A stretch of 16,397 nucleotides of DNA, taken from the IMG/VR virus record IMGVR_UViG_2778261693_000004, positions 1 to 16,397 of that record; one strand, 5' to 3'. Origin of the DNA: a virus. Lineage: Duplodnaviria; Heunggongvirae; Uroviricota; Caudoviricetes. The notes below the pieces were generated by a model. That model made no database searches. It was not told where the DNA came from and saw only the letters and a program-made list of their open reading frames with translations. Shown piece by piece: positions 1,709 through 15,858 of the stretch (the first letter of the stretch is position 1; each line of letters begins with the position of its first letter). The translations under genes and the position numbers were made by a program.

Positions 1709-1736
1709 AAAAAAAAAAGGCGGCCTAATGGCCGCC
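1709..1736 (-). terminator. Intrinsic-terminator-like hairpin plus U10 on the minus strand, ending 5 nt before the ref ATG
   Basis: GGCGGCC-TAAT-GGCCGCC (1719-1736) with an A10 run at 1709-1718 on the plus strand, which is U10 after the hairpin on the minus-strand RNA. Confidence 0.5.
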
Positions 1737-1820: not shown

Positions 1821-1926
1821 GATAGATATTTTGTTTATCGCTAATCACATTTTTTCACTTCAGTACCTGTGTGCTATACTCCTTCTTGATTGATTGGATG
1901 CGGAATACAAACCCGCTCTTTTGTGC

Positions 1927-1954
1927 AGCCTGGCTCCTTGCCAGGCTTTTTTTT
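1927..1954 (+). terminator. Plus-strand rho-independent terminator with no annotated plus-strand gene upstream
   Basis: AGCCTGGC-tcctt-GCCAGGCT hairpin followed by T8 (1947-1954). Candidate extended -10 (TGcTATACT, about 1873-1881) lies 50 nt upstream on the same strand. Confidence 0.45.
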
Positions 1955-2264
1955 ATTTCATCATGGAAGTTGTTAACGCTTTGGACCTTGCTGAACTGAT
2001 TGAGAGGGCTTTGTCAACGTGCCCCAAAAATTCGCCAAACTCAGACATCACTTTAGCAAAACCGCGCCGTGCTTCTTCCTCGGTGGCATTCATCACGAAA
2101 TGTTCAGCACCACGCATACTTTTGACAGGGAACGCAACGGATATTGAATCAATATCAGGCATTCTATCGCTCAGCTTTACAGTGACAATGACGGCTGGCG
2201 ACTGAATATTAGTGCTTACAGACAGCACTACATATTTTCCGTCGATGTTGAAATCCTTTCTCAT
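1953..2264 (-). CDS. cra: Cra (cre-associated) small protein
   Basis: 103-aa ORF with GGTGA Shine-Dalgarno 3 nt before the ATG. Its offset from cre/loxP matches where I recall P1 cra. The equal-length mirror ORF on the plus strand has no Shine-Dalgarno. Confidence 0.5.
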   Translation of the reverse strand: MRKDFNIDGKYVVLSVSTNIQSPAVIVTVKLSDRMPDIDSISVAFPVKSMRGAEHFVMNATEEEARRGFAKVMSEFGEFLGHVDKALSISSARSKALTTSMMK

Positions 2265-2314: not shown

Positions 2315-3346
2315 CTAATCGCCATCTTCCAGAAGGCGCACCATTGCCCCTGTTTCACTATCCAGGTTACGGATATAGTTCATGACAATATTTACGTTGG
2401 TCCAGCCACCAGCTTGCATGATCTCCGGTATTGAAACTCCGGCACGGGCCATATCTCGCGCGGCTCCGACACGGGCACTGTGTCCAGACCAGGCCAGGTA
2501 CCTCTGGCCAGAGTCATCCTTAGCCCCGTAAATCAATCGGTGAGTTGCTTCAAAAATCCCTTCCAGGGCGCGAGTTGATAGCTGGCTGGTGGGTGATGGC
2601 GAGGCAACACCATTTTTTCTGACCCGGCAAAACAAGTAGTTATTCGGATCATCAGCCACACCAGAGACAGAAATCCATCGTTCGACCAGTTTAGTTACCC
2701 CCAGGCTAAGTGCCTTCTCTACACCCGCGGTACTAACCAGAGTTTTCGTTCTGCCAATATGGATTAGCATTCTCCCACCGTCTGTACGTGAGATATCTTT
2801 AACCCTGATCCTGGCAATTTCGGCTATACGTAACAGGGTGTTATAAGCGATCCCCAGAAATGCCAGATTACGTATATCCTGGCAGCGATCGCTATTTTCC
2901 ATGAGTGAACGAACCTGGTCGAAATCAGTGCGTTCGAACGCCAATGCCTGTTTTGCACGTTCACCGGCATCAACGTTTTCTTTTCGAATCCGCCGCATGA
3001 CCAGTGAAACAGCATTGCTGTCACTTGGTCGTGGCAGCCCGGACCGACGATGAAGCATGTTTAGCTGGCCCAAATGTTGCTGGATAGTTTTTACTGCCAG
3101 ACCGCGCGCCTGAAGATATAGAAGATAATCGCGAACATCTTCAGGTTCTGCGGGAAACCACTTCCGGTTATTCAACTTGCACCATGCCGCCCACGACCGG
3201 CAAACGGACAGAAGCATTTTCCAGGTATGCTCAGAAAACGCCTGGCGATCCCTGAACATGTCCATCAGGTTCTTGCGAACCTCATCACTCGTTGCATCGA
3301 CCGGTAATGCAGGCAAATTTTGGTGTACGGTCAGTAAATTGGACAT
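2315..3346 (-). CDS. cre: Cre site-specific tyrosine recombinase
   Basis: 343-aa translation (MSNLLTVHQNLPALPVDATSDEVRKNLMDMFRDRQAFSEHTWK…MVRLLEDGD) is recognisable along its full length as P1 Cre. loxP lies about 420 bp upstream. Confidence 0.97.
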   Translation of the reverse strand: MSNLLTVHQNLPALPVDATSDEVRKNLMDMFRDRQAFSEHTWKMLLSVCRSWAAWCKLNNRKWFPAEPEDVRDYLLYLQARGLAVKTIQQHLGQLNMLHRRSGLPRPSDSNAVSLVMRRIRKENVDAGERAKQALAFERTDFDQVRSLMENSDRCQDIRNLAFLGIAYNTLLRIAEIARIRVKDISRTDGGRMLIHIGRTKTLVSTAGVEKALSLGVTKLVERWISVSGVADDPNNYLFCRVRKNGVASPSPTSQLSTRALEGIFEATHRLIYGAKDDSGQRYLAWSGHSARVGAARDMARAGVSIPEIMQAGGWTNVNIVMNYIRNLDSETGAMVRLLEDGD

Positions 3347-3575: not shown

Positions 3576-3671
3576 TTTTCACCTCTGATTGATTGGTGGT
3601 GCTAAGTGCGCTACGCGAAATCTGGAGCACTAACACTGCCAACATTTCGCAGATTTTACGTAGCGCAACCT

Positions 3672-4499: not shown

Positions 4500-5351
4500 A
4501 TGATAAATTATGTCTACGGCGAACAACTGTACCAGGAGTTCGTCAGCTTCAGGGATCTCTTTCTAAAAAAAGCTGTTGCACGCGCCCAACACGTTGATGC
4601 CGCCAGCGACGGTCGTCCTGTTCGCCCGGTTGTCGTTCTGCCGTTCAAAGAAACGGACAGCATTCAGGCTGAAATTGATAAATGGACTTTAATGGCGCGG
4701 GAACTGGAACAGTACCCAGACCTCAATATCCCAAAGACTATTTTATATCCAGTGCCTAACATCCTTCGCGGTGTACGTAAGGTTACAACTTATCAGACAG
4801 AAGCTGTGAACAGCGTCAACATGACCGCTGGCCGCATTATTCATCTGATTGATAAGGATATTCGCATCCAAAAAAGCGCGGGGTTCAATGAGCACAGTGC
4901 GAAATACATAGAGAACCTGGAAGCAACAAAAGAGCTAATGAAGCAGTACCCGGAGGATGAAAAATTCCGTATGCGCGTACACGGCTTTAGCGAAACAATG
5001 CTGCGCGTCCACTACATTTCCAGTAGCCCTAACTACAATGATGGTAAATCAGTTAGTTACCATGTGCCACTGTGTGGCGTGTTTATCTGCGATGAAACCC
5101 TCCGTGATGGAATCATCATCAACGGTGAATTCGAGAAAGCAAAATTTAGCCTTTATGACTCCATAGAACCGATCATCTGCGACCGCTGGCCGCAGGCAAA
5201 AATATATCGCCTGGCAGATATTGAAAATGTAAAAAAACAAATTGCCATCACTCGCGAAGAGAAAAAGGTCAAATCAGCCGCATCAGTTACGCGCAGTCGT
5301 AAAACTAAGAAGGGGCAGCCAGTAAACGACAACCCCGAAAGCGCGCAATAA
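4500..5351 (+). CDS. c1: C1 prophage repressor
   Basis: 283 aa, the length I recall for P1 C1. GGAGGAGG Shine-Dalgarno. Follows coi, about 0.7 kb from loxP. Window carries nine copies of its operator motif. Confidence 0.85.
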   Translation: MINYVYGEQLYQEFVSFRDLFLKKAVARAQHVDAASDGRPVRPVVVLPFKETDSIQAEIDKWTLMARELEQYPDLNIPKTILYPVPNILRGVRKVTTYQTEAVNSVNMTAGRIIHLIDKDIRIQKSAGFNEHSAKYIENLEATKELMKQYPEDEKFRMRVHGFSETMLRVHYISSSPNYNDGKSVSYHVPLCGVFICDETLRDGIIINGEFEKAKFSLYDSIEPIICDRWPQAKIYRLADIENVKKQIAITREEKKVKSAASVTRSRKTKKGQPVNDNPESAQ

Positions 5352-5383: not shown

Positions 5384-6529
5384 TTATTCAGCCGCCACCG
5401 GTTTTAACAAGCCAGCATCGAGCAGTTTACGCGTCAACCACTGTTGTCCTTTCCCCGTTAATTGGGGCGTCAGCCGTATCTGGTAGCCATCTTCATCATC
5501 CAGCACCACTTCTTTCACTGTGAAATATCCGGCGTTTATGTACTGCTGGAACGGCACATTTTTACGCCCGCCGGACGCTATCAGAATGCCGTTCTCCCGT
5601 AACCAGGCAAACAGCGCGTTTTGCTTCAGCCCAACAACCTTTGCAAAATTACCAATCAGGATCCCCTTAGCCACTGATACACGGTCGGCAAAATCGACCT
5701 TGGGGGCTGCGGCCACCAGTTGTTGATTTAGCTGGTGGGCCTTCTGTTCCAGTAGCTGCTTTTGTTCAGCCAGCTCGGCAGCCAGGCGCAAGGCTTCAGG
5801 TAGTGTTTGGGGGATTGCGACCGGTTGCTGTTCTTTTTGCCGGAAGTAGCTGTCTTCCAGTTTTTCAAAGAATGCCCATGCTTCATCTGTGTTTACGATC
5901 TTAGACATGCGTGCCGCTCCGCGTTCGGCCCAAAGAATTACCTGGCTTGTATATTTGCTAACCAGGTGACTAGTAGTCACCAGCCTTTTAAATTCCTTTA
6001 ATTTTTAACCAGTTAAGAGATAGTAATGCTTACCTTCTTCAAAGCGATCGGAGTTGCGAGACAAATTTTTACGAATATTAGCTTCATCGGTTCCATACCC
6101 CTTAGCAAGAGTTTCGGTCGTTACTACACGCACTCCCAGCCATTCCAGAACGGGAATTTCATCAGACTGATTCTGAACAACCACCAGCTCTGATTCCTGA
6201 ACTGAAGTTGCATGAATTTTTTCTGATTTAACGTTAGTTGCTTTCATTCTGTGTGCCTCCTTGCGTGCTTCGGCTGCGACGGTTGCGTAATTCAGATGAC
6301 CCTGTTCGAGCAGGTATTCACGGATATCGGTCACAGCGATAGCCTTTAAGCGCAGATAAACATCGCGCTTATCGACATCCAGATGCGGGTATTCCTTTTC
6401 AAGAATTGCTGCGAGTTCTTTCGCTGATAGAAGAGATTTAGTGCGGATCATGTAATCCGCAATCTCGTACGATGTTATTCGTGAGTGATTTATTTCCATG
6501 AAGTGGCGTCCCTGCCAGTTAAGTAACAT
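5384..6529 (-). pseudogene. Antirepressor-like gene (ORF6N/Rha-type N-terminal domain plus KilA-C/ANT C-terminal domain) split by an in-frame TAA at 6005-6007
   Basis: ORFs 6005-6529 and 5384-5980 are in the same frame. The upstream ORF stops mid-domain (…SDRFEEGKHYYLLTG*) and the domain continues after the stop (KLKEFKRLVTTSHLV…TDEAWAFFEKLEDSYF). The downstream part carries a KilA-C-like motif (GNFAKVVGLKQNALFAWLRENGIL…PFQQYINAGYF) and begins only at a GTG. Confidence 0.6.
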
Positions 6530-6599
6530 CCTGTCACCTACTGATTAGCCCATGTCAACTAATCAACGTCGAATATAATACCATCGATTAAAGAAATAG

Positions 6600-6616
6600 C
6601 AATACATTAGAGCAAT
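6600..6616 (-). promoter_or_regulatory. C1 operator-like site upstream of the antirepressor-like gene
   Basis: caatacATTAGAGCAAT, 14/17 to the reverse-complement consensus, 71 bp upstream of the ATG at 6529. Confidence 0.55.
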
Positions 6617-6617
6617 T

Positions 6618-7664
6618 TTATCTAACGCTCGACGAATGACTTGTGATAGCGCCGACTCCAAGCGCGTAATCAAAGAACAATCGTTGATGCATCGCCAGCC
6701 TACCGTGCGTCTTCTCCCAATTATCGCGGTCACGCTCAATATCACGCTGGCATGACTGGCACAGAGGAATAGCATAAATGTCATGCGCGCATAATCGACT
6801 ATAACGAACGATATAAGGCGTAATGTGAGCGCCAGCTCCCGCCGCTCCACACCCACAGCATGGACGGGAAGCAACAAAGTCCATGTACTCAGGTAATTTT
6901 AGCGATTGCAGTTTTGGTATTTTGAAATGCGCCATACCTGGGTCGGAGTCAACATCCACAGGGCATACTTTTGCACGCATCGGCGCGGCGCGTTCTTCCA
7001 TCATCTGAACATATGCTGTAGCGCGATCGTCATACGGGCGAATATCCGCCTCTTTCAGTGGTCCGCTATCCTGCGGAGTAGCCTTCATCTTATTTATTAT
7101 TGATATGCGGCAGACTTCTTCCGGCATCAGGTGCATCATGTTGCGCATGAAAGCCCACCAGCACAGCTCCTGAATACTTAAATCATGGCTATTTGAAAGG
7201 CCCATTTCCTGACGGGCGACATCCAGTATCCAGTTAACGCGATTATTGTGCAGCGTTTCTTTCAGCTCATTAAAACCACGCATCCGGTAATGGTTATCGT
7301 GATGCCAGCACAACAACACCGCGCTATTGTCTCGTTCAGCGTGGACAATATGGTTGTCACACCAACTACGATCTGCGGCCTGGCATTGACCCTCTTTCCT
7401 ACGCAACCACGCCACCAGCGCGTCAATTCCACCAATACGGCGAAACAGTTCATCGCTGTTAAAAAACGGCTGCAACGCCTCATTTGTTGCCATGGTTTGC
7501 TCGGTAACAACGAGGCCGTCTTCCATGTGCTCGATTAACTCACGCGGCACCGGCTCCATAATAAATTTACGGCCAGCCTCCACCAGCTTTCTGACCTCCT
7601 GATCCACTTTGAACGTGGCGAGGCCAAGCTCTTTCTGTACAAAGGGAGTAATTACGGCTTTCAC
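6618..7664 (-). CDS. Hypothetical 348-aa protein with a C-terminal Cys/His cluster resembling the Ref HNH-like motif
   Basis: GTG start with AAGGTG Shine-Dalgarno 4 nt upstream. C-terminus …[42 protein letters not shown]. At the position I recall for P1 pdcB, but I do not recognise the sequence. Confidence 0.6.
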
Positions 7665-9113: not shown

Positions 9114-9698
9114 ATGCCTAATCGCATTCCTCTCGATCCTGTATTGCCCAAAAATTTTGACTGCACTCCTAACGAGAAACGCTCTAAAGCTCAGCTGGAC
9201 GCCTAGTGGGACCATCCATATGGGGTTACACAACCTGACGGGAAAATTGTAGTTTATTGTCTGAATGGTGGGGCGTGGGACCGTCCATCCATGCTTTGTT
9301 TGGCAGATAACTATGATGAAGCCTGTGAACTTGCCGAAAGACAGCAGGCAAGCTGGGTAAAAACACGGTCTGAACCGACATTCATGTTTTCAAAAGAACC
9401 GCCATTTATACTGGCGAGGATGCCGCAGCGACCGGATCATCAACAAGAAATTGTTGCTGAATTTTCCTCAAGGGATGAGATGAATCTCTTCTCATTAAAG
9501 CAGGAAGAAAGGGATCGCGTCGAAGTGTCTCCAACTCTCGACCACAACCGGATGAACCTGGCCCAGCTCGCCTGGTACAGCAAAGAATTAGAGATGTCTA
9601 TTGCCCGGCTTGAAAACGAAAAAGCCGCTATCCAAGTCCAGCACGAAGTAGTTCTGAACCGGATTAGAGAAATGCAAAACGATAACAGGGGATTTTGA
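9114..9698 (+). CDS. Hypothetical protein; reading frame from a well-positioned ATG is interrupted by an in-frame TAG at 9204-9206 (uninterrupted ORF starts at 9291)
   Basis: AAGGAA Shine-Dalgarno 8 nt before the ATG at 9114. Frame is open for 30 codons, then TAG, then continuously to 9698. The ATGs at 9291 and 9314 have no Shine-Dalgarno. The stop abuts the next gene's ATG. Confidence 0.45.
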
Positions 9699-10055
9699 AT
9701 GGCTAAAATCGAGTACCATCGCGATCGCGGTAATTACCTGGAAATATACGATCATGAATCTCTTAACGATATCAACGATGCGTTATATGAATACTGTGAA
9801 AAAACGAGCATCACAGATGCACCTGATGCATTTGTCGAGCTGCCGGTATATCTCCGCGACATCTATGCAATACGAACACCGCCCGTATCGGTGATTCACA
9901 TTGGCTATGTCCGCCTGTCCATCGAAGAAGATGAAGATCGTTATATCGTGCGCCACTATACATTGGACAGAAAAGAACTTCCTAATGAATGGAACATGAG
10001 TAATTTCTACAACGGTGAATATGGCTTAAAATCCGCTAATAATTTACGGTCATAA
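9699..10055 (+). CDS. Hypothetical 118-aa protein, translationally coupled to the upstream gene
   Basis: ATG at 9699 directly follows TGA at 9696-9698. AGGGGA Shine-Dalgarno. Sequence not recognised. Confidence 0.55.
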   Translation: MAKIEYHRDRGNYLEIYDHESLNDINDALYEYCEKTSITDAPDAFVELPVYLRDIYAIRTPPVSVIHIGYVRLSIEEDEDRYIVRHYTLDRKELPNEWNMSNFYNGEYGLKSANNLRS

Positions 10056-12867: not shown

Positions 12868-13234
12868 TCACTCTCCTTTGATGCGAATGCCAGCGTCAGA
12901 CATCATATGCAGATACTCAACTGCATCCTGAACCCATTGACCGCCAATCCCGTAATAGCGATGCGTAATGATGTCGATAGTTACTAACGGGTCTTGTTCG
13001 ATTAACTTCCGCAGAAACTCTTCCAGGTCACCAGTGCAGTGCTTGATGACAGGAGTTTTCCCAGGATGGCGAACAACAAGAAACTGATTTCCGACTTCAC
13101 GGACTTCGTTGCTTTCCAGTTCTGCTATCCATAAAAATGAAATGGACGCTAACGCCAGCTTTTCGCTGTGCTTCCATCAGATGAACGAGATAAGCCGATG
13201 TTCGTCCACCTGAAAAGCTGACGACTTGATGCAT
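12868..13234 (-). pseudogene. PP-loop (SGGxxS) ATP-pyrophosphatase-like gene, apparently frameshifted
   Basis: ATG at 13232-13234 gives MHQVVSFSGGRTSAYLVHLMEAQRKAGVSVHFIFMDSRTGKQRSP*. A second frame overlapping it by about 80 nt continues to 12868 (…NQFLVVRHPGKTPVIKHCTGDLEEFLRKLIEQDPLVTIDII…). The switch lies near a T5 run / GGAAAG around 13100-13135. Confidence 0.45.
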
Positions 13235-13243
13235 ACTCACGGT

Positions 13244-13822
13244 TTATTCCTGAATGCGCTTAAACTCGATTACCCATACCAACGGGTTAGATAGCCAGTT
13301 ATCCTGCCCGTAAATACTGCGCCAGATATCACCAAAACCAACGCGATAAACAGCTTCAGATGGCGTAATCTTGTACGTCGCCGGAGTTGCGCCTTCTGCT
13401 TTAGCATCTTCCTCGCTCATGTCATGCAGCCGTTCCACACGCACGTCGGTAATTTCCAAAAGAATGCGCGATGCCCAGCGCGGCATGTGAATTGATGGCG
13501 TCCACTTTTCTGATACTGGTTTATTACAAACCTCGACCGGAACCCGGTGCGTTTGTTCTGTCCAGGAGTTACGCACGCTTGCGCGATAAACCAGCGTTGC
13601 GACGTCCGTCGCTTTGCCATGTACCCGGTAGGTTTCGCGAACCCAAATACGATCGCCCGGTTGACCATATGGACAATGCTTGGCAAGCAACTCTGCGGCC
13701 ACTGCCCGTCCATAGAATTTTTCTTCAACAATCCTGCGAGTCTGTGTTTTATTCCCGCCAAGAATTGCCCGGACCATCTCATCGTTAAAAATCATGCCGC
13801 GCTCTTTCACTTCGCCTTTCAT
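13244..13822 (-). CDS. ASCH-domain-like protein
   Basis: 192 aa. N-terminal MIFNDEMVRAILGGNKTQTRR fits the ASCH G-x-K-x-x-T-x-R signature. GGGGG Shine-Dalgarno. Confidence 0.6.
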   Translation of the reverse strand: MKGEVKERGMIFNDEMVRAILGGNKTQTRRIVEEKFYGRAVAAELLAKHCPYGQPGDRIWVRETYRVHGKATDVATLVYRASVRNSWTEQTHRVPVEVCNKPVSEKWTPSIHMPRWASRILLEITDVRVERLHDMSEEDAKAEGATPATYKITPSEAVYRVGFGDIWRSIYGQDNWLSNPLVWVIEFKRIQE

Positions 13823-13831
13823 GCATCCCCC

Positions 13832-13918
13832 TTACCCATGTGCGACGATGCCGCCAAAAGTGATAGAGAACAGCCAGAAATAGATCGCGGCCATAATGAT
13901 TTTGAATGCCGTGTTCAT
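13832..13918 (-). CDS. Small hydrophobic peptide (28 aa), first ORF of the operon
   Basis: MNTAFKIIMAAIYFWLFSITFGGIVAHG with AGGAG 9 nt upstream. Its stop lies 9 nt before the ASCH gene's ATG. Confidence 0.3.
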   Translation of the reverse strand: MNTAFKIIMAAIYFWLFSITFGGIVAHG

Positions 13919-13945
13919 ATTTTCAGCTCCTGTGATTGATTGGAT

Positions 13946-13977
13946 ACATGCCGCGCCTTGCGGCATGTTTTTATTTT
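13946..13977 (+). terminator. Plus-strand rho-independent terminator in the leader of a minus-strand operon
   Basis: ACATGCCGC-gcctt-GCGGCATGT (9-bp GC-rich stem) followed by TTTTTATTTT. No plus-strand gene upstream. Confidence 0.45.
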
Positions 13978-13991
13978 CACTTTCTCTGTTT

Positions 13992-14008
13992 TAAAAATCA
14001 TTATTTAT
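13992..14008 (-). promoter_or_regulatory. C1 operator in front of the ASCH/PP-loop/nuclease operon
   Basis: ttATTTATTAGAGCAAT, 15/17 to the reverse-complement consensus. Confidence 0.7.
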
Positions 14009-14016
14009 TAGAGCAA

Positions 14017-14523
14017 TTATTGTTGATGGAGAAGCGCGTTTTCATACTCCCTGACCATTAACGTAAGCACGCCGTGCCTCCTGAAAACACGCGCCACTTC
14101 AATCTTATCTTCCAGCGCGAACGCAATTTTGCTTAGACCAATTTTCTTAAGGAGATCAATCTTTGCTGGACCGTCATTTCTGTCATCGGTGGCGGGACGC
14201 ATAGATAGCAAAGGCTCTGCCCCATTTGTTACGTGCTTACGCAACCAGGCTCGTGTTTTATCCCTGGCTATCTCACAGCGCCCGGTTACAAACCAGAGCG
14301 TGTAAATGCTGGACAACTGGCGCACCATATCAATAACTGGAGTGATGGAAGCATCAGTGTCACAGGCAAGGTTAAACTCGTTCCAGTGCTCTGTTAATGC
14401 ACCGTTGCCAGGCGGTGGAAGTAAATGCAGCCTGTCTTCCGTTGCCTCCGATATCGTTCCATCAATATCTACTATGACAATGTACGGACGTTCCTGGTGT
14501 GCGTGTTTATTGAAAATACTCAA
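14017..14523 (-). CDS. HAD-superfamily phosphatase (polynucleotide 3'-phosphatase-like DxDGT motif)
   Basis: 168 aa with motif I VIVDIDGTIS. TTG start with GAGGAGG Shine-Dalgarno 4 nt upstream. Confidence 0.7.
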   Translation of the reverse strand: MSIFNKHAHQERPYIVIVDIDGTISEATEDRLHLLPPPGNGALTEHWNEFNLACDTDASITPVIDMVRQLSSIYTLWFVTGRCEIARDKTRAWLRKHVTNGAEPLLSMRPATDDRNDGPAKIDLLKKIGLSKIAFALEDKIEVARVFRRHGVLTLMVREYENALLHQQ

Positions 14524-14542
14524 ATGCCCTCCTCATTGGACG

Positions 14543-14576
14543 AAAAAAATGCTGGTGGGCGCACTCCACCAGCATT
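14543..14576 (-). terminator. Minus-strand rho-independent terminator after the 420-aa gene
   Basis: AATGCTGGTGG-gcgcact-CCACCAGCATT (11-bp stem) with A7 on the plus strand 5' of it, i.e. a U-run after the hairpin on minus-strand RNA. Confidence 0.55.
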
Positions 14577-14595
14577 AAAAGTGACACTGTAACTA

Positions 14596-15858
14596 TCAGC
14601 GAACGTAAATAGTGCCGCCGTTCACTTTTTCCCATGCATCGCTAAGTGCATAGCAAACATCAAGAAGTCTTCTTGCCGCTGTTTCCTCTAAACCCAATTC
14701 GACAACCAACTGCTCATGACGGCGGGTAACCACATCAAACAGGGTATGCAGCCCTTTAGCTGCCAGATCATCAATAAATTCCGGTTCGAACGGCAGCTCT
14801 GCATCTGCCAACATAACCTCTTGCGCCCACTCAACTCGACGGACCAGTTCCGGGCGGCGGCTTTCCATCTCTTTACAGATCAATTCATGGAAGAACTCTA
14901 CCCAACCTTCCGGCTGGAACTCGCGGAAAATTGCCAACGGCTGGAAGTTTGGCATCAACCATTCGTTGATTCGGATATCAATGGCATAGCCCATGTCGCA
15001 GCAGAACTGATAAGCAAAGTCCAGCTTAGAAACGATATAAGGACGCTCGTTATTGAACTCTTTAGGCGATGAGATCCCATAAGCCAGGAGGCGCGGGAAG
15101 AATGAGATTTGCCCTAACGTCGGATGGAGTTTGCTTGCAGGAAAACGGCGCTCAGTAATGCCATACATTTCCTTCTTGAGCGTCGCAAATTTAGCATTTT
15201 CATTAACCAGCGCGGTAACCTCTGCTTTTTTATTAGCAAATGCCACGCGCGCTTCGCTTGCATCTTTAATAGTTTTTTTGAGCTGTTGGTTAAGATCGGC
15301 GACCTGCTTACGCAGTTCCTGTCGCTCGCTTTTAGCTTTGTTATAGCGTTTCTCAAGGTTAAAAGGATCAAGTTTCATGATCTCTTTATATTGAGATTTT
15401 AGCGTTGAAATCTGTGAGTTCCGCAGTTCAACCATCGCGGTCATTTCATTGAGTTTTGTTTCCAGCTCAATGCTTATACGTTCGGCATTATCAGCACGCT
15501 GGTTGGCGTCATGCGTCGCATCGTCGATCGCGTCCTGTTGCTGGCGTTTCAAATGTTCAATTTGCAGCTGAAGCTCTTCAATTTCTTTACCCTTCAGACC
15601 GAGATCCAACTGCATATTTTCAGCTGCATCTACCAGGGAGTTATGGCTATCAGCTTCTGCGTTATAAACATCAATAAGCTGTGCGTGAAGCATCTCCGCT
15701 GACTGAACCGCATTATCAAAAAAACGCGCTGTGAGGTCATCACAACTAACGCGGCGTTGCGCGGCCCGGATGTTCTGGATAATGGCCGGGATACCGGCAT
15801 TCAGGACGTCAGGGATAGATACATTTTCGATTGATTGGTTTTGTGCTGAAGTGCTCAT
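14596..15858 (-). CDS. Hypothetical 420-aa protein, N-terminal coiled-coil plus a C-terminal globular domain
   Basis: Long ORF; residues about 80-220 are heptad-rich (…EIEELQLQIEHLKRQQQDAIDD…). Sequence not recognised. Confidence 0.65.
   Translation of the reverse strand: MSTSAQNQSIENVSIPDVLNAGIPAIIQNIRAAQRRVSCDDLTARFFDNAVQSAEMLHAQLIDVYNAEADSHNSLVDAAENMQLDLGLKGKEIEELQLQIEHLKRQQQDAIDDATHDANQRADNAERISIELETKLNEMTAMVELRNSQISTLKSQYKEIMKLDPFNLEKRYNKAKSERQELRKQVADLNQQLKKTIKDASEARVAFANKKAEVTALVNENAKFATLKKEMYGITERRFPASKLHPTLGQISFFPRLLAYGISSPKEFNNERPYIVSKLDFAYQFCCDMGYAIDIRINEWLMPNFQPLAIFREFQPEGWVEFFHELICKEMESRRPELVRRVEWAQEVMLADAELPFEPEFIDDLAAKGLHTLFDVVTRRHEQLVVELGLEETAARRLLDVCYALSDAWEKVNGGTIYVR

Follow-up and report, generated by a model that had tools for sequence, protein, structure and literature searches.

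The window, i.e. the whole stretch of 16,397 nucleotides analysed here, belongs to a P1/P7-like punavirus, and its part between positions 13400 and 14600 shows 95-98% identity to P1, P7, JL22, RCS47 and SJ46. According to the P1 and P7 records, the minus strand of the window is the coding strand of the pmgR-pmgS-pap-pmgT block, and the hairpin considered here is situated in the pap-to-pmgT intergenic region, the home of the C1 operator Op88/OpmgT, which is near-identical among the window, P1 and P7 (Table 1). In the P1 record this gap carries a monovalent C1 operator, OpmgT (formerly Op88), and two predicted sigma-70 promoters, P1pmgT and P2pmgT; neither a terminator nor a small ORF is annotated in it. 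The operator has long been known, while the hairpin and the small ORF are described neither in the searchable literature nor in the P1 record, and our literature search on Op88, pmgT and the box sequence discussed below returned nothing relevant. The P1 record ascribes a putative morphogenetic function to pmgS and pap. On the plus strand, the genes nearest to the hairpin are those at 9291-10055, recognised by PHROG matches; no canonical terminator was seen after them, and no plus-strand gene is annotated in the window next to the hairpin on its upstream side.

Table 1. Features of the pap-pmgT junction and of the c8-ref spacer (window coordinates)
Feature	Position	Strand	Basis or remark
Second cistron, 192 aa	13244..13822	-	phrog_874, P7 upf86.8-like; first gene of the variable cargo region
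First cistron, 28-aa hydrophobic ORF MNTAFKIIMAAIYFWLFSITFGGIVAHG	13832..13918	-	GGAG Shine-Dalgarno
Shine-Dalgarno GGAG of the small ORF	13927..13930	-	Sequence; invariant in all lineages
C/A-rich leader box ATCCAATCAATCA	13933..13945	-	Between hairpin and Shine-Dalgarno
GC-rich stem-loop	13946..13968	.	Minus: hairpin at the predicted start of the OpmgT/Op88 transcript; plus: terminator stem
T-run TTTTATTTTC	13969..13978	+	Complement of -10 GAAAAT (13978-13973) and AAAA (13972-13969)
-10 GAAAAT (predicted sigma-70, P1pmgT of the P1 record)	13973..13978	-	P1 annotation
-35 ATGATT (predicted)	13996..14001	-	TTGATT/TTGTTT in relatives; 17 bp upstream of -10; overlaps last operator base
C1 operator ATTGCTCTAATAAATAA (= P1 Op88/OpmgT)	14001..14017	-	2 mismatches to consensus; P1, P7 annotation
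pap	14017..14523	-	3'-phosphatase, HAD_PNKP domain; upstream gene, stop codon abuts operator
c8-Oref terminator	1927-1947	+	Between c8 stop codon and Oref (1804-1820)

The operator at the pap-pmgT junction, ATTGCTCTAATAAATAA, is a 17-bp asymmetric site matching ATTGCTCTAATAAATTT and aligned with the annotated operators of P1 and P7; in total, eight operator-like sites were found in the window against 0.1 expected. The earlier note had put it at 13992-14008, which is 9 nt off the actual site. In the window, as in P1, the operator and the pap stop codon share one base; the stem follows the operator at 32 nt and the hairpin follows the pap stop codon at 49 nt. The -10 hexamer of P1pmgT reaches 7.5 bits with a position-weight matrix (99.6th percentile of the window), and the stem begins 4 nt past it; judging from the register of the P1pmgT hexamers, the predicted +1 falls on the first stem bases. 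As to the other promoter candidates of this gap, P2pmgT (TTGCTC-17-TAAAAC) scores 5.4 bits, and a pair upstream of the operator, ATGAAA-18-AATAAT, scores 8.9 bits, i.e. above P1pmgT. If either of these two served as the promoter, the hairpin would be located 15-45 nt inside the leader and not at its end.

The hairpin does lie between the C1 operator and the first minus-strand ORF, as had been proposed from the sequence; this ORF, though, is not the 192-aa one that was taken for the first gene of the operon, being instead a 28-aa ORF (13918-13832) preceded by GGAG. It bears no annotation in the P1 and P7 records and is listed as 'membrane protein' or 'hypothetical protein' in SJ46, JL22 and phi456. 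The peptide has no match in Pfam, PHROG or NCBIfam, and tblastn with it returned matches in punaviruses only. Its diverged relatives are longer (53-65 aa) and have the same N-terminal transmembrane segment; M1, K6, A11 and W15 are invariant across the lineages. Thereby the true first cistron of the Op88 operon is defined as a conserved small membrane protein absent from the P1 and P7 annotation. The operator, the hairpin and the small ORF form a conserved backbone, and homology breaks by cargo type directly after the stop codon of the small ORF; in the window the homology to P1 ends at about 13767, within the region of the 192-aa cistron. The break past the small ORF marks a border of 'variable region 8', which extends from pmgT to humD in P1-like phage-plasmids (PMC9603915). 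There are eight variable cargo regions, and the pap-pmgT junction forms the fixed border of one of them.

Read on the plus strand, the hairpin is composed of ACATGCCGC-GCCTT-GCGGCATGT and is directly followed by TTTTATTTT, the first ten nucleotides past the stem being TTTTATTTTC. The stem consists of nine pairs (ten counting one G-T), six of them G-C, with a loop of 3-5 nt, which agrees with the 5-14 bp GC-rich stem and 3-8 nt loop of an intrinsic terminator, and the tract directly 3' of it contains 8 T in 10 nt. In the minus direction the stem is followed by AUCCAAUCAA, with 2 U in 10, and the terminator form exists in the plus direction only, just as the earlier note had it. The hairpin alone has a folding energy of -15.3 kcal/mol, and the 98-nt interval around it folds at -25.5 kcal/mol (z = -4.0), with none of 200 shuffled sequences being as stable. 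The description of the element as a terminator embedded in the leader is accordingly right as to the canonical plus-strand form and overstated as to its nature, the T-run being nothing else than the complement of the -10 hexamer and of four adjoining A. Weak terminator-like sites are common in the window, because 28 of them were found against 15.7 expected, and this might suggest a functionless chance inverted repeat. Such an explanation is, however, hardly credible in view of the z-score, of the scarcity of sites of this quality (a stringent scan retrieved just 12 strong terminators in the whole 88-kb genome of P1) and of the compensatory changes that preserve the helix across lineages, which are considered below. 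No Rfam family was found at gathering score, either in the permissive scan of 13000-14700 or in the gathering-threshold scan of the whole window. A late-promoter function was also considered and rejected: LPhot of P1 carries AAGTTACTT at -22, which is unrelated to the GC hairpin.

The conservation of the element was examined in seven diverged sequences representing six lineages (Cronobacter phage JK004 and L172, L174, L175, L176 and L178), supplemented later with L187-L189 and L199. Their Pap proteins are 71% identical in the case of JK004 and 72-79% in the case of the other diverged contigs. All six lineages keep, in a fixed register, the operator, the -35 and -10 hexamers separated by 17 bp, the GC stem-loop, the CCAATCAATCA box, GGAG and the small membrane ORF. 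In the diverged lineages, too, the operator overlaps the pap stop codon and the -35 hexamer, TTGATT or TTGTTT, occupies operator positions 17-22 ahead of a 17-bp spacer, while the -10 is found at positions 40-45 in all lineages and fits xAxxAT (GAAAAT, AAGAAT, CAGAAT, CATCAT, AATAAT). The stem-loop begins 2-7 nt past the -10 in six of the seven sequences and 12 nt past it in L175 with the fold chosen there; 3' of it come CCAATCA(ATCA)C, GGAG and the ATG of the small membrane protein, in this order. A scan with the leader pattern gave 33 metagenome matches, among which the operator was present only in L199, and five matches in viral contigs, four of them with the operator; the extra variants obtained from the viral and metagenome scans fit the leader pattern. 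Attempts to enlarge the set in other ways added little: a Pap search of GTDB species genomes yielded two loci only, and neither PLSDB nor IMG/VR contained JK004-like sequences beyond the P1-likes. JK004 itself harbors a second C1-controlled cassette of the same layout, at operator 70501.

The stems themselves differ by lineage (CATGCCGC, AAGGCCAC, TGGCGGTCGC, TAGGCAGTCGC, GGGCAC and GGCCGC), i.e. the structure is kept while the sequence changes. With five sequences aligned in register (A3), pairing holds in 84% of cells, and in 18-46% once the partners are slid; five of the ten stem pairs are changed on both sides, and the covariation score of these five sequences, 0.45 against 0.21 in shuffles, was reached by none of 500 shuffles. 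RNAalifold returns the same helix. Preservation by compensatory change is among the features expected of a 5' stabilising stem-loop, along with a start within about 0-4 nt of the RNA's 5' end. The folding z-scores are weak in L174, JK004 and L175 (-1.1 to -1.9). Covariation is blind to the strand, and the asymmetry of wobble changes, about 4-5 against 2, gives the sense strand no more than a slight advantage. The opposite-strand T-run shows a different history: 8 T in 10 nt follow the stem in the window, and only 2-5 in the six diverged lineages, all of which lack the run though the stem is kept, so that the signature of stem and U-tract has not been retained in them. Since the six lineages keep the register of the stem and none keeps the opposite-strand T-run, the ancestral element was probably a leader hairpin, located at the predicted 5' end of the mRNA. 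Of the two readings offered in the earlier note, the 5' hairpin is favoured as the conserved role by the compensatory stems and the fixed distance to the -10, while a block to antisense transcription is still plausible as an addition of the P1 clade.

The diverged sequences also bear on the relation of the hairpin to pap. The hairpin could act on sense read-through from this gene, either as a terminator devoid of a U-tract or as a 3' stabiliser of the pmgR-pmgS-pap message; it is found 49 nt past the pap stop, and in a more distant relative, L173 (Pap identity 59%), the equivalent hairpin encloses the -10 and is followed, in the sense direction, by the T-run TTCTGCTTTT, which makes it look like a pap terminator. 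We regard this possibility as highly improbable: in the window and the six lineages only 1-4 of the 10 sense positions after the stem are T, a strong sense terminator, retrieved by the scan of the window, already exists between pmgS and pap (14576-14548), and the conserved spacing is that between the hairpin and the -10 and not that between the hairpin and pap.

As for the terminator-like side of the element, one explanation is that there is only a leader hairpin, and that the likeness to a terminator is a by-product of the AT-rich -10/start region adjoining a GC stem, with no termination in vivo. The exact complementarity of the T-run to GAAAAT and AAAA, its disappearance in the diverged lineages and the lack of a plus-strand gene directly upstream in the window are all consistent with this view. 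Nevertheless, we think it unlikely for the following reasons. Among 49 unique sequences of the P1 clade the stem and the A-run AAAATAAAAAC are nearly invariant, while the neighbouring spacer between the operator and the -10 varies. Moreover, most of the 75 IMG/VR loci gathered via Pap have co-directional pmgT- or upf86.8-like genes downstream, but in 20 of them, as well as in the PLSDB plasmids L006 and L007, a convergent type I hsdM-hsdS-hsdR cassette is aimed at the hairpin. In these hsd-type loci the hsdR stop codon is found about 190 nt ahead of the hairpin, which is the sole canonical plus-strand terminator between hsdR and pap. A same-strand unit ending just upstream of the terminator is thus present in the hsd-type relatives; no such unit adjoins it in the window. 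Finally, the P1 terminators that face against their gene block are all located beside operators, a coincidence with a chance probability of about 7e-5 if one accepts a post hoc calculation.

This last point is based on the stringent scan of P1. Three of its 12 strong terminators face against the gene block, namely the Op88 hairpin, the c8-Oref site and the ant-kilA site, and all three are 32-107 nt from a C1 operator, while 4.2% of the genome lies within 120 nt of one; the statistic (0.042 cubed) was computed after the pattern had been noticed. The ant-kilA terminator is placed where the annotated PaskilA/P53as antisense RNA should end. The P53as promoter and its start site, 49915, are annotated in the P1 record; both were reportedly determined experimentally by Heinrich and colleagues in 1995, and the length of the RNA we take to be 180 nt. 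As to the c8-Oref site, the claim that the arrangement seen at Op88 recurs at ref holds in so far as a plus-oriented terminator exists there; this terminator precedes the ref promoters instead of forming part of the ref leader. P1 offers a documented precedent for an operator-adjacent terminator that faces against its operon, with a different geometry at Op88. Because it is the first terminator after convergent hsdR in 20 of 75 loci, and because the against-block terminators cluster at C1 operators, the plus-oriented terminator of Op88, an addition of the P1 clade as far as can be judged from sequence comparison, is plausibly used.

The same precedent makes it conceivable that the element chiefly terminates a cis-antisense RNA of the P53as type, ending at 13972-13978 and damping the C1-controlled operon. 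In this case a constitutive plus-strand promoter within the 5' end of the operon would produce a short RNA able to pair with the leader, the ribosome-binding site and the small ORF. Along with Op53, PaskilA and its start at 49915, and with the P53as terminator being one of the three against-block terminators of P1, all beside C1 operators, two plus-strand promoter candidates located at suitable distances argue for such an RNA: TTGCCC-16-AAAAAT (13765/13787; 8.7 bits, 99.8th percentile), which would give an RNA of about 178 nt, and ATGATT-16-TATTTT (13896/13918; 7.6 bits, 99.65th percentile), which would give one of about 48 nt with the anti-Shine-Dalgarno CUCC. Besides, the plus strand has a weak GcvB-like match in Rfam, consisting of a GU-rich stretch followed by the terminator (20 bits, E = 0.087), but this is far under the gathering score of 42 bits. 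Both promoter candidates are moderate, being no stronger than the sense ones, and many background sites score as well; their sequence is altered in P1 (TGGCCC...GAAAAT), and they are absent in the hsd-type relatives and not conserved in the diverged lineages, which have neither the T-run nor a conserved antisense promoter despite the kept hairpin. The geometry differs as well: in the antisense direction the Op88 terminator precedes the -10, the -35 and the operator, so that the RNA would end before reaching them, whereas the P53as RNA crosses its promoter and operator. Taken with these points, a chiefly antisense function seems fairly improbable to us.

We therefore lean, with moderate confidence, towards a dual use of the hairpin, in which an ancestral 5' leader hairpin would serve, in the P1/P7 clade, also as a one-way terminator for plus-strand transcription. 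The sequence of events could be as follows. The C1-repressed promoter beside Op88/OpmgT would start the early transcript at the stem base or a few nucleotides from it, and the paired 5' end, like the known 5'-terminal hairpins such as that of ompA, would shield this mRNA against 5'-end-dependent decay (RppH/RNase E), while the ribosome-binding site and the C/A box would presumably stay unpaired. In the P1/P7 clade the -10 GAAAAT together with AAAA reads as T5AT4 after the stem on the other strand, which would turn the hairpin into a canonical one-way terminator. A polymerase leaving the cargo region would then be stopped short of the promoter, of the operator with its bound C1 and of pap/pmgS. 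Such a polymerase would come, in the relatives, from the convergent hsdM-hsdS-hsdR genes; in the virus under study it might have read through the genes at 9291-10055 or have started at a weak antisense promoter.

In general, the hairpin is a regulatory element of an ordinary sort with a modest peculiarity: it unites two known kinds, the 5' leader hairpin and the intrinsic terminator, and within the phage the P53as terminator is the element closest to it. P1 Op53/P53 with P53as (PaskilA), found in the same phage family, likewise has a C1-controlled early promoter and a terminator facing against the operon, and at both sites the terminator consists of a GC hairpin with an A-run ahead of it on the coding strand; the gap between operator and terminator is 41 nt at Op53 and 32 nt at Op88. 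On the other hand, the Op53 terminator is upstream of the promoter and operator, which the antisense RNA has to cross, while that of Op88 is downstream of the -10; and the antisense promoter and start are annotated at Op53 (49915), while no convincing one was found at Op88.

As to the leader side, Emory, Bouvet and Belasco are said to have described, in 1992, the hairpin of the ompA 5' UTR as a 5'-terminal stabilising stem-loop. With stem-loops of the ompA type the Op88 hairpin shares its stability, a presumably single-stranded ribosome-loading region, the conservation of structure rather than of sequence and, as far as the predicted start holds, a near absence of unpaired nucleotides at the 5' end; it differs from them in doubling as an opposite-strand terminator in one clade and in having a 5' end that is only predicted. 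Like terminators between convergent units, it has a canonical stem, loop and U-tract and, in the hsd-type relatives, is located between hsdR and the Op88 unit; unlike them, it is one-directional, overlaps the opposing -10 and start instead of occupying a neutral spacer, and is separated from hsdR by the small ORF. The resemblance to type I toxin-antitoxin modules is confined to a 28-aa hydrophobic ORF whose ribosome-binding site is covered by a terminator-ended antisense strand. In contrast to such modules, the Op88 ORF stands first in an operon under repressor control and its relatives have 53-65 aa with a hydrophilic tail; given the lack of a Pfam, PHROG or NCBIfam match for the peptide, of a convincing antisense promoter and of an Rfam family at gathering score, this assignment was rejected.

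As a tool of E. coli genetics P1 is in very wide use (Cre-lox, transduction, PAC vectors), and resistance as well as restriction cassettes travel on P1-like phage-plasmids. A one-way terminator within a C1-controlled promoter would explain how cargo, including constitutive hsd genes, can be swapped in either orientation; such swaps would then proceed without transcription entering the repressor-bound operator and pmgS/pap. About 280 other plasmids match just 84 nt of the small-ORF antisense, and in the two IncF plasmids examined this segment is located after hsdR and is then cut by an insertion sequence. The occurrence of the small-ORF antisense next to hsdR in plasmids accounts for the remark of the P1 annotators that the segment is similar to the DNA that follows the hsd loci of R124/3 and EcoDXXI.

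One more feature of the leader is the core of its C/A-rich box, CCAATCAATCA, which occurs in three exact copies in P1 and in five in phage JK004, against about 0.04 expected. The copies are all on the coding strand, and most of them are found after a hairpin and before a start codon; the sites are the cra leader, the c8-ref spacer and the Op88 leader in P1, and at least four sites in JK004. It is possible, although doubtful, that box-bearing leaders, with a hairpin at +1, a single-stranded CCAAUCAAUCA and a Shine-Dalgarno, constitute a post-transcriptional cassette repeated in the P1 family and accompanied by further P53as-like antisense RNAs. This supposition rests on the over-representation of CCAATCAATCA and on the strong plus-strand promoter that adjoins the c8-ref terminator. 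Should it be true, the leaders would be read as a regulon by some shared factor, be it a protein, a small RNA or the ribosome, and the Op88 and c8-ref sites of the P1 clade would also make or terminate unrecognised P53as-like antisense RNAs, which gives two further places in P1 where such RNAs may exist.

Several candidates for the partner or the origin of the box were rejected. The C4 antisense RNA was discarded as the partner, as nothing complementary to CCAATCAATCA occurs in the C4 and a1b1 sequences of P1. A trans-acting RNA conserved in JK004 was ruled out, the box sites of this phage being without an opposite-strand terminator. Homology between the Op88 and c8-ref sites past the shared 13-mer was likewise rejected, with a local score of 26 that is reached by 10 of 2000 shuffles and compares with 29 for other windows. 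At the c8-ref site itself, a candidate plus-strand RNA of about 70 nt (1887-1955) would begin with UUGAUUGAUUGGAU, and this 5' end is fully complementary to the Op88 leader box.

A C/A-rich stretch of the leader that begins the predicted early mRNA of the C1 operator Op88 (OpmgT) contains an 11-mer box, CCAATCAATCA, that recurs elsewhere in the window and in JK004, a diverged Cronobacter phage relative. Exact copies number three in P1 and five in JK004, against about 0.04 expected, and they are confined to the coding strand. Most have a hairpin just before them (as in the cra leader, the c8-ref spacer and the Op88 leader) and a Shine-Dalgarno sequence or start codon 0-15 nt after; one lies inside pmgS, at codons 8-11. 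No report of the box turned up in the literature search. As to a possible partner of the box, the P1 antisense RNA C4 was ruled out, since it has no complementarity to it.

The interval between c8 and ref may encode a small RNA. Its promoter-like site (TTTTCA-17-TGcTATACT, 1852-1880, plus strand) scores 12.1 bits, at the 99.98th percentile and among the top scores of the window. The roughly 70 nt after it are predicted to fold into two hairpins (z = -3.5), the second of which is a canonical terminator (1927-1947, then T8). The predicted 5' end of this RNA, UUGAUUGAUUGGAU, is complementary at every position to the Op88 leader box at 13933-13945. P1 has this region without a single difference and carries no annotated feature there.

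Coordinates of the features discussed
Feature	Location	Strand	Basis or remark
Candidate small-RNA gene, c8-ref interval	1852-1958	+	promoter-like site and predicted fold ending in terminator
Box CCAATCAATCA, window	1887-1899, 3586-3598, 13933-13945, 15828-15840	all -	sequence recurrence
Box CCAATCAATCA, JK004 (loci L180/L181)	70427, 66716, 64816, 47845, 42401		sequence recurrence
Small membrane protein ORF, first cistron of Op88 operon	13832-13918	-	conserved in relatives
Extended 44-aa reading of this ORF	13832-13966	-	upstream in-frame ATG
Strong sense-strand terminator before ref	1719-1736	-	GGCGGCCATTAGGCCGCC then T10
Strong sense-strand terminator separating pmgS from pap	14548-14576	-	
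Hairpin at pap junction, L173	2489-2600 (L173)		
c1	4500-5351	+	
Ant-like anti-repressor fragment	5384-5980		
HNH endonuclease	6618-7664		
84-nt match to the small-ORF antisense	3001-3084 (IncF plasmids L003 and L004)		

Sense-strand terminators were also found at ref and pap. The former, located 3' of the annotated ref promoters and directly before the start codon at 1703, might serve as an attenuator within the leader of ref. For pap, no promoter is annotated in the P1 record. Of the Pap-linked relatives, L173 is the most distant (59% identity). Because the loop of its junction hairpin holds the -10 hexamer GAAAAT and a sense-strand T-run follows, this hairpin resembles a terminator of pap that overlaps the promoter after it, a different solution from that of the window.

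The first Op88 cistron, without annotation in the P1 and P7 records, encodes a small membrane protein in which M1, K6, A11 and W15 are invariant; its length is 28 aa in the window, and diverged relatives have versions of 53-65 aa. An upstream in-frame ATG, missing in diverged lineages, falls within the leader hairpin, on its 5' arm (13966-13964, minus strand), and would extend the protein of the window to 44 aa; if transcription began at A13966, the mRNA would open with AUG, that is, be leaderless.

Between c1 and the humD-like gene (5384-7664), the window harbors the Ant-like fragment and the HNH endonuclease instead of the lpa-pacA-pacB genes of P1. As no pacB-sized ORF is present in the window, the packaging genes seem to be absent from this element or located elsewhere in it.

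In the relatives with a type I hsdM-hsdS-hsdR cassette convergent on the hairpin, the small membrane protein ORF is the sole sense-strand gene remaining 3' of the Op88 promoter. About 280 other plasmids share only 84 nt of P1 backbone, namely the antisense of this ORF. Two IncF plasmids were inspected, and in both the 84 nt lie 3' of type I hsdR and are ended by IS1 or IS66; this arrangement suggests that the hsd cassette of these plasmids came from a P1-like phage-plasmid.
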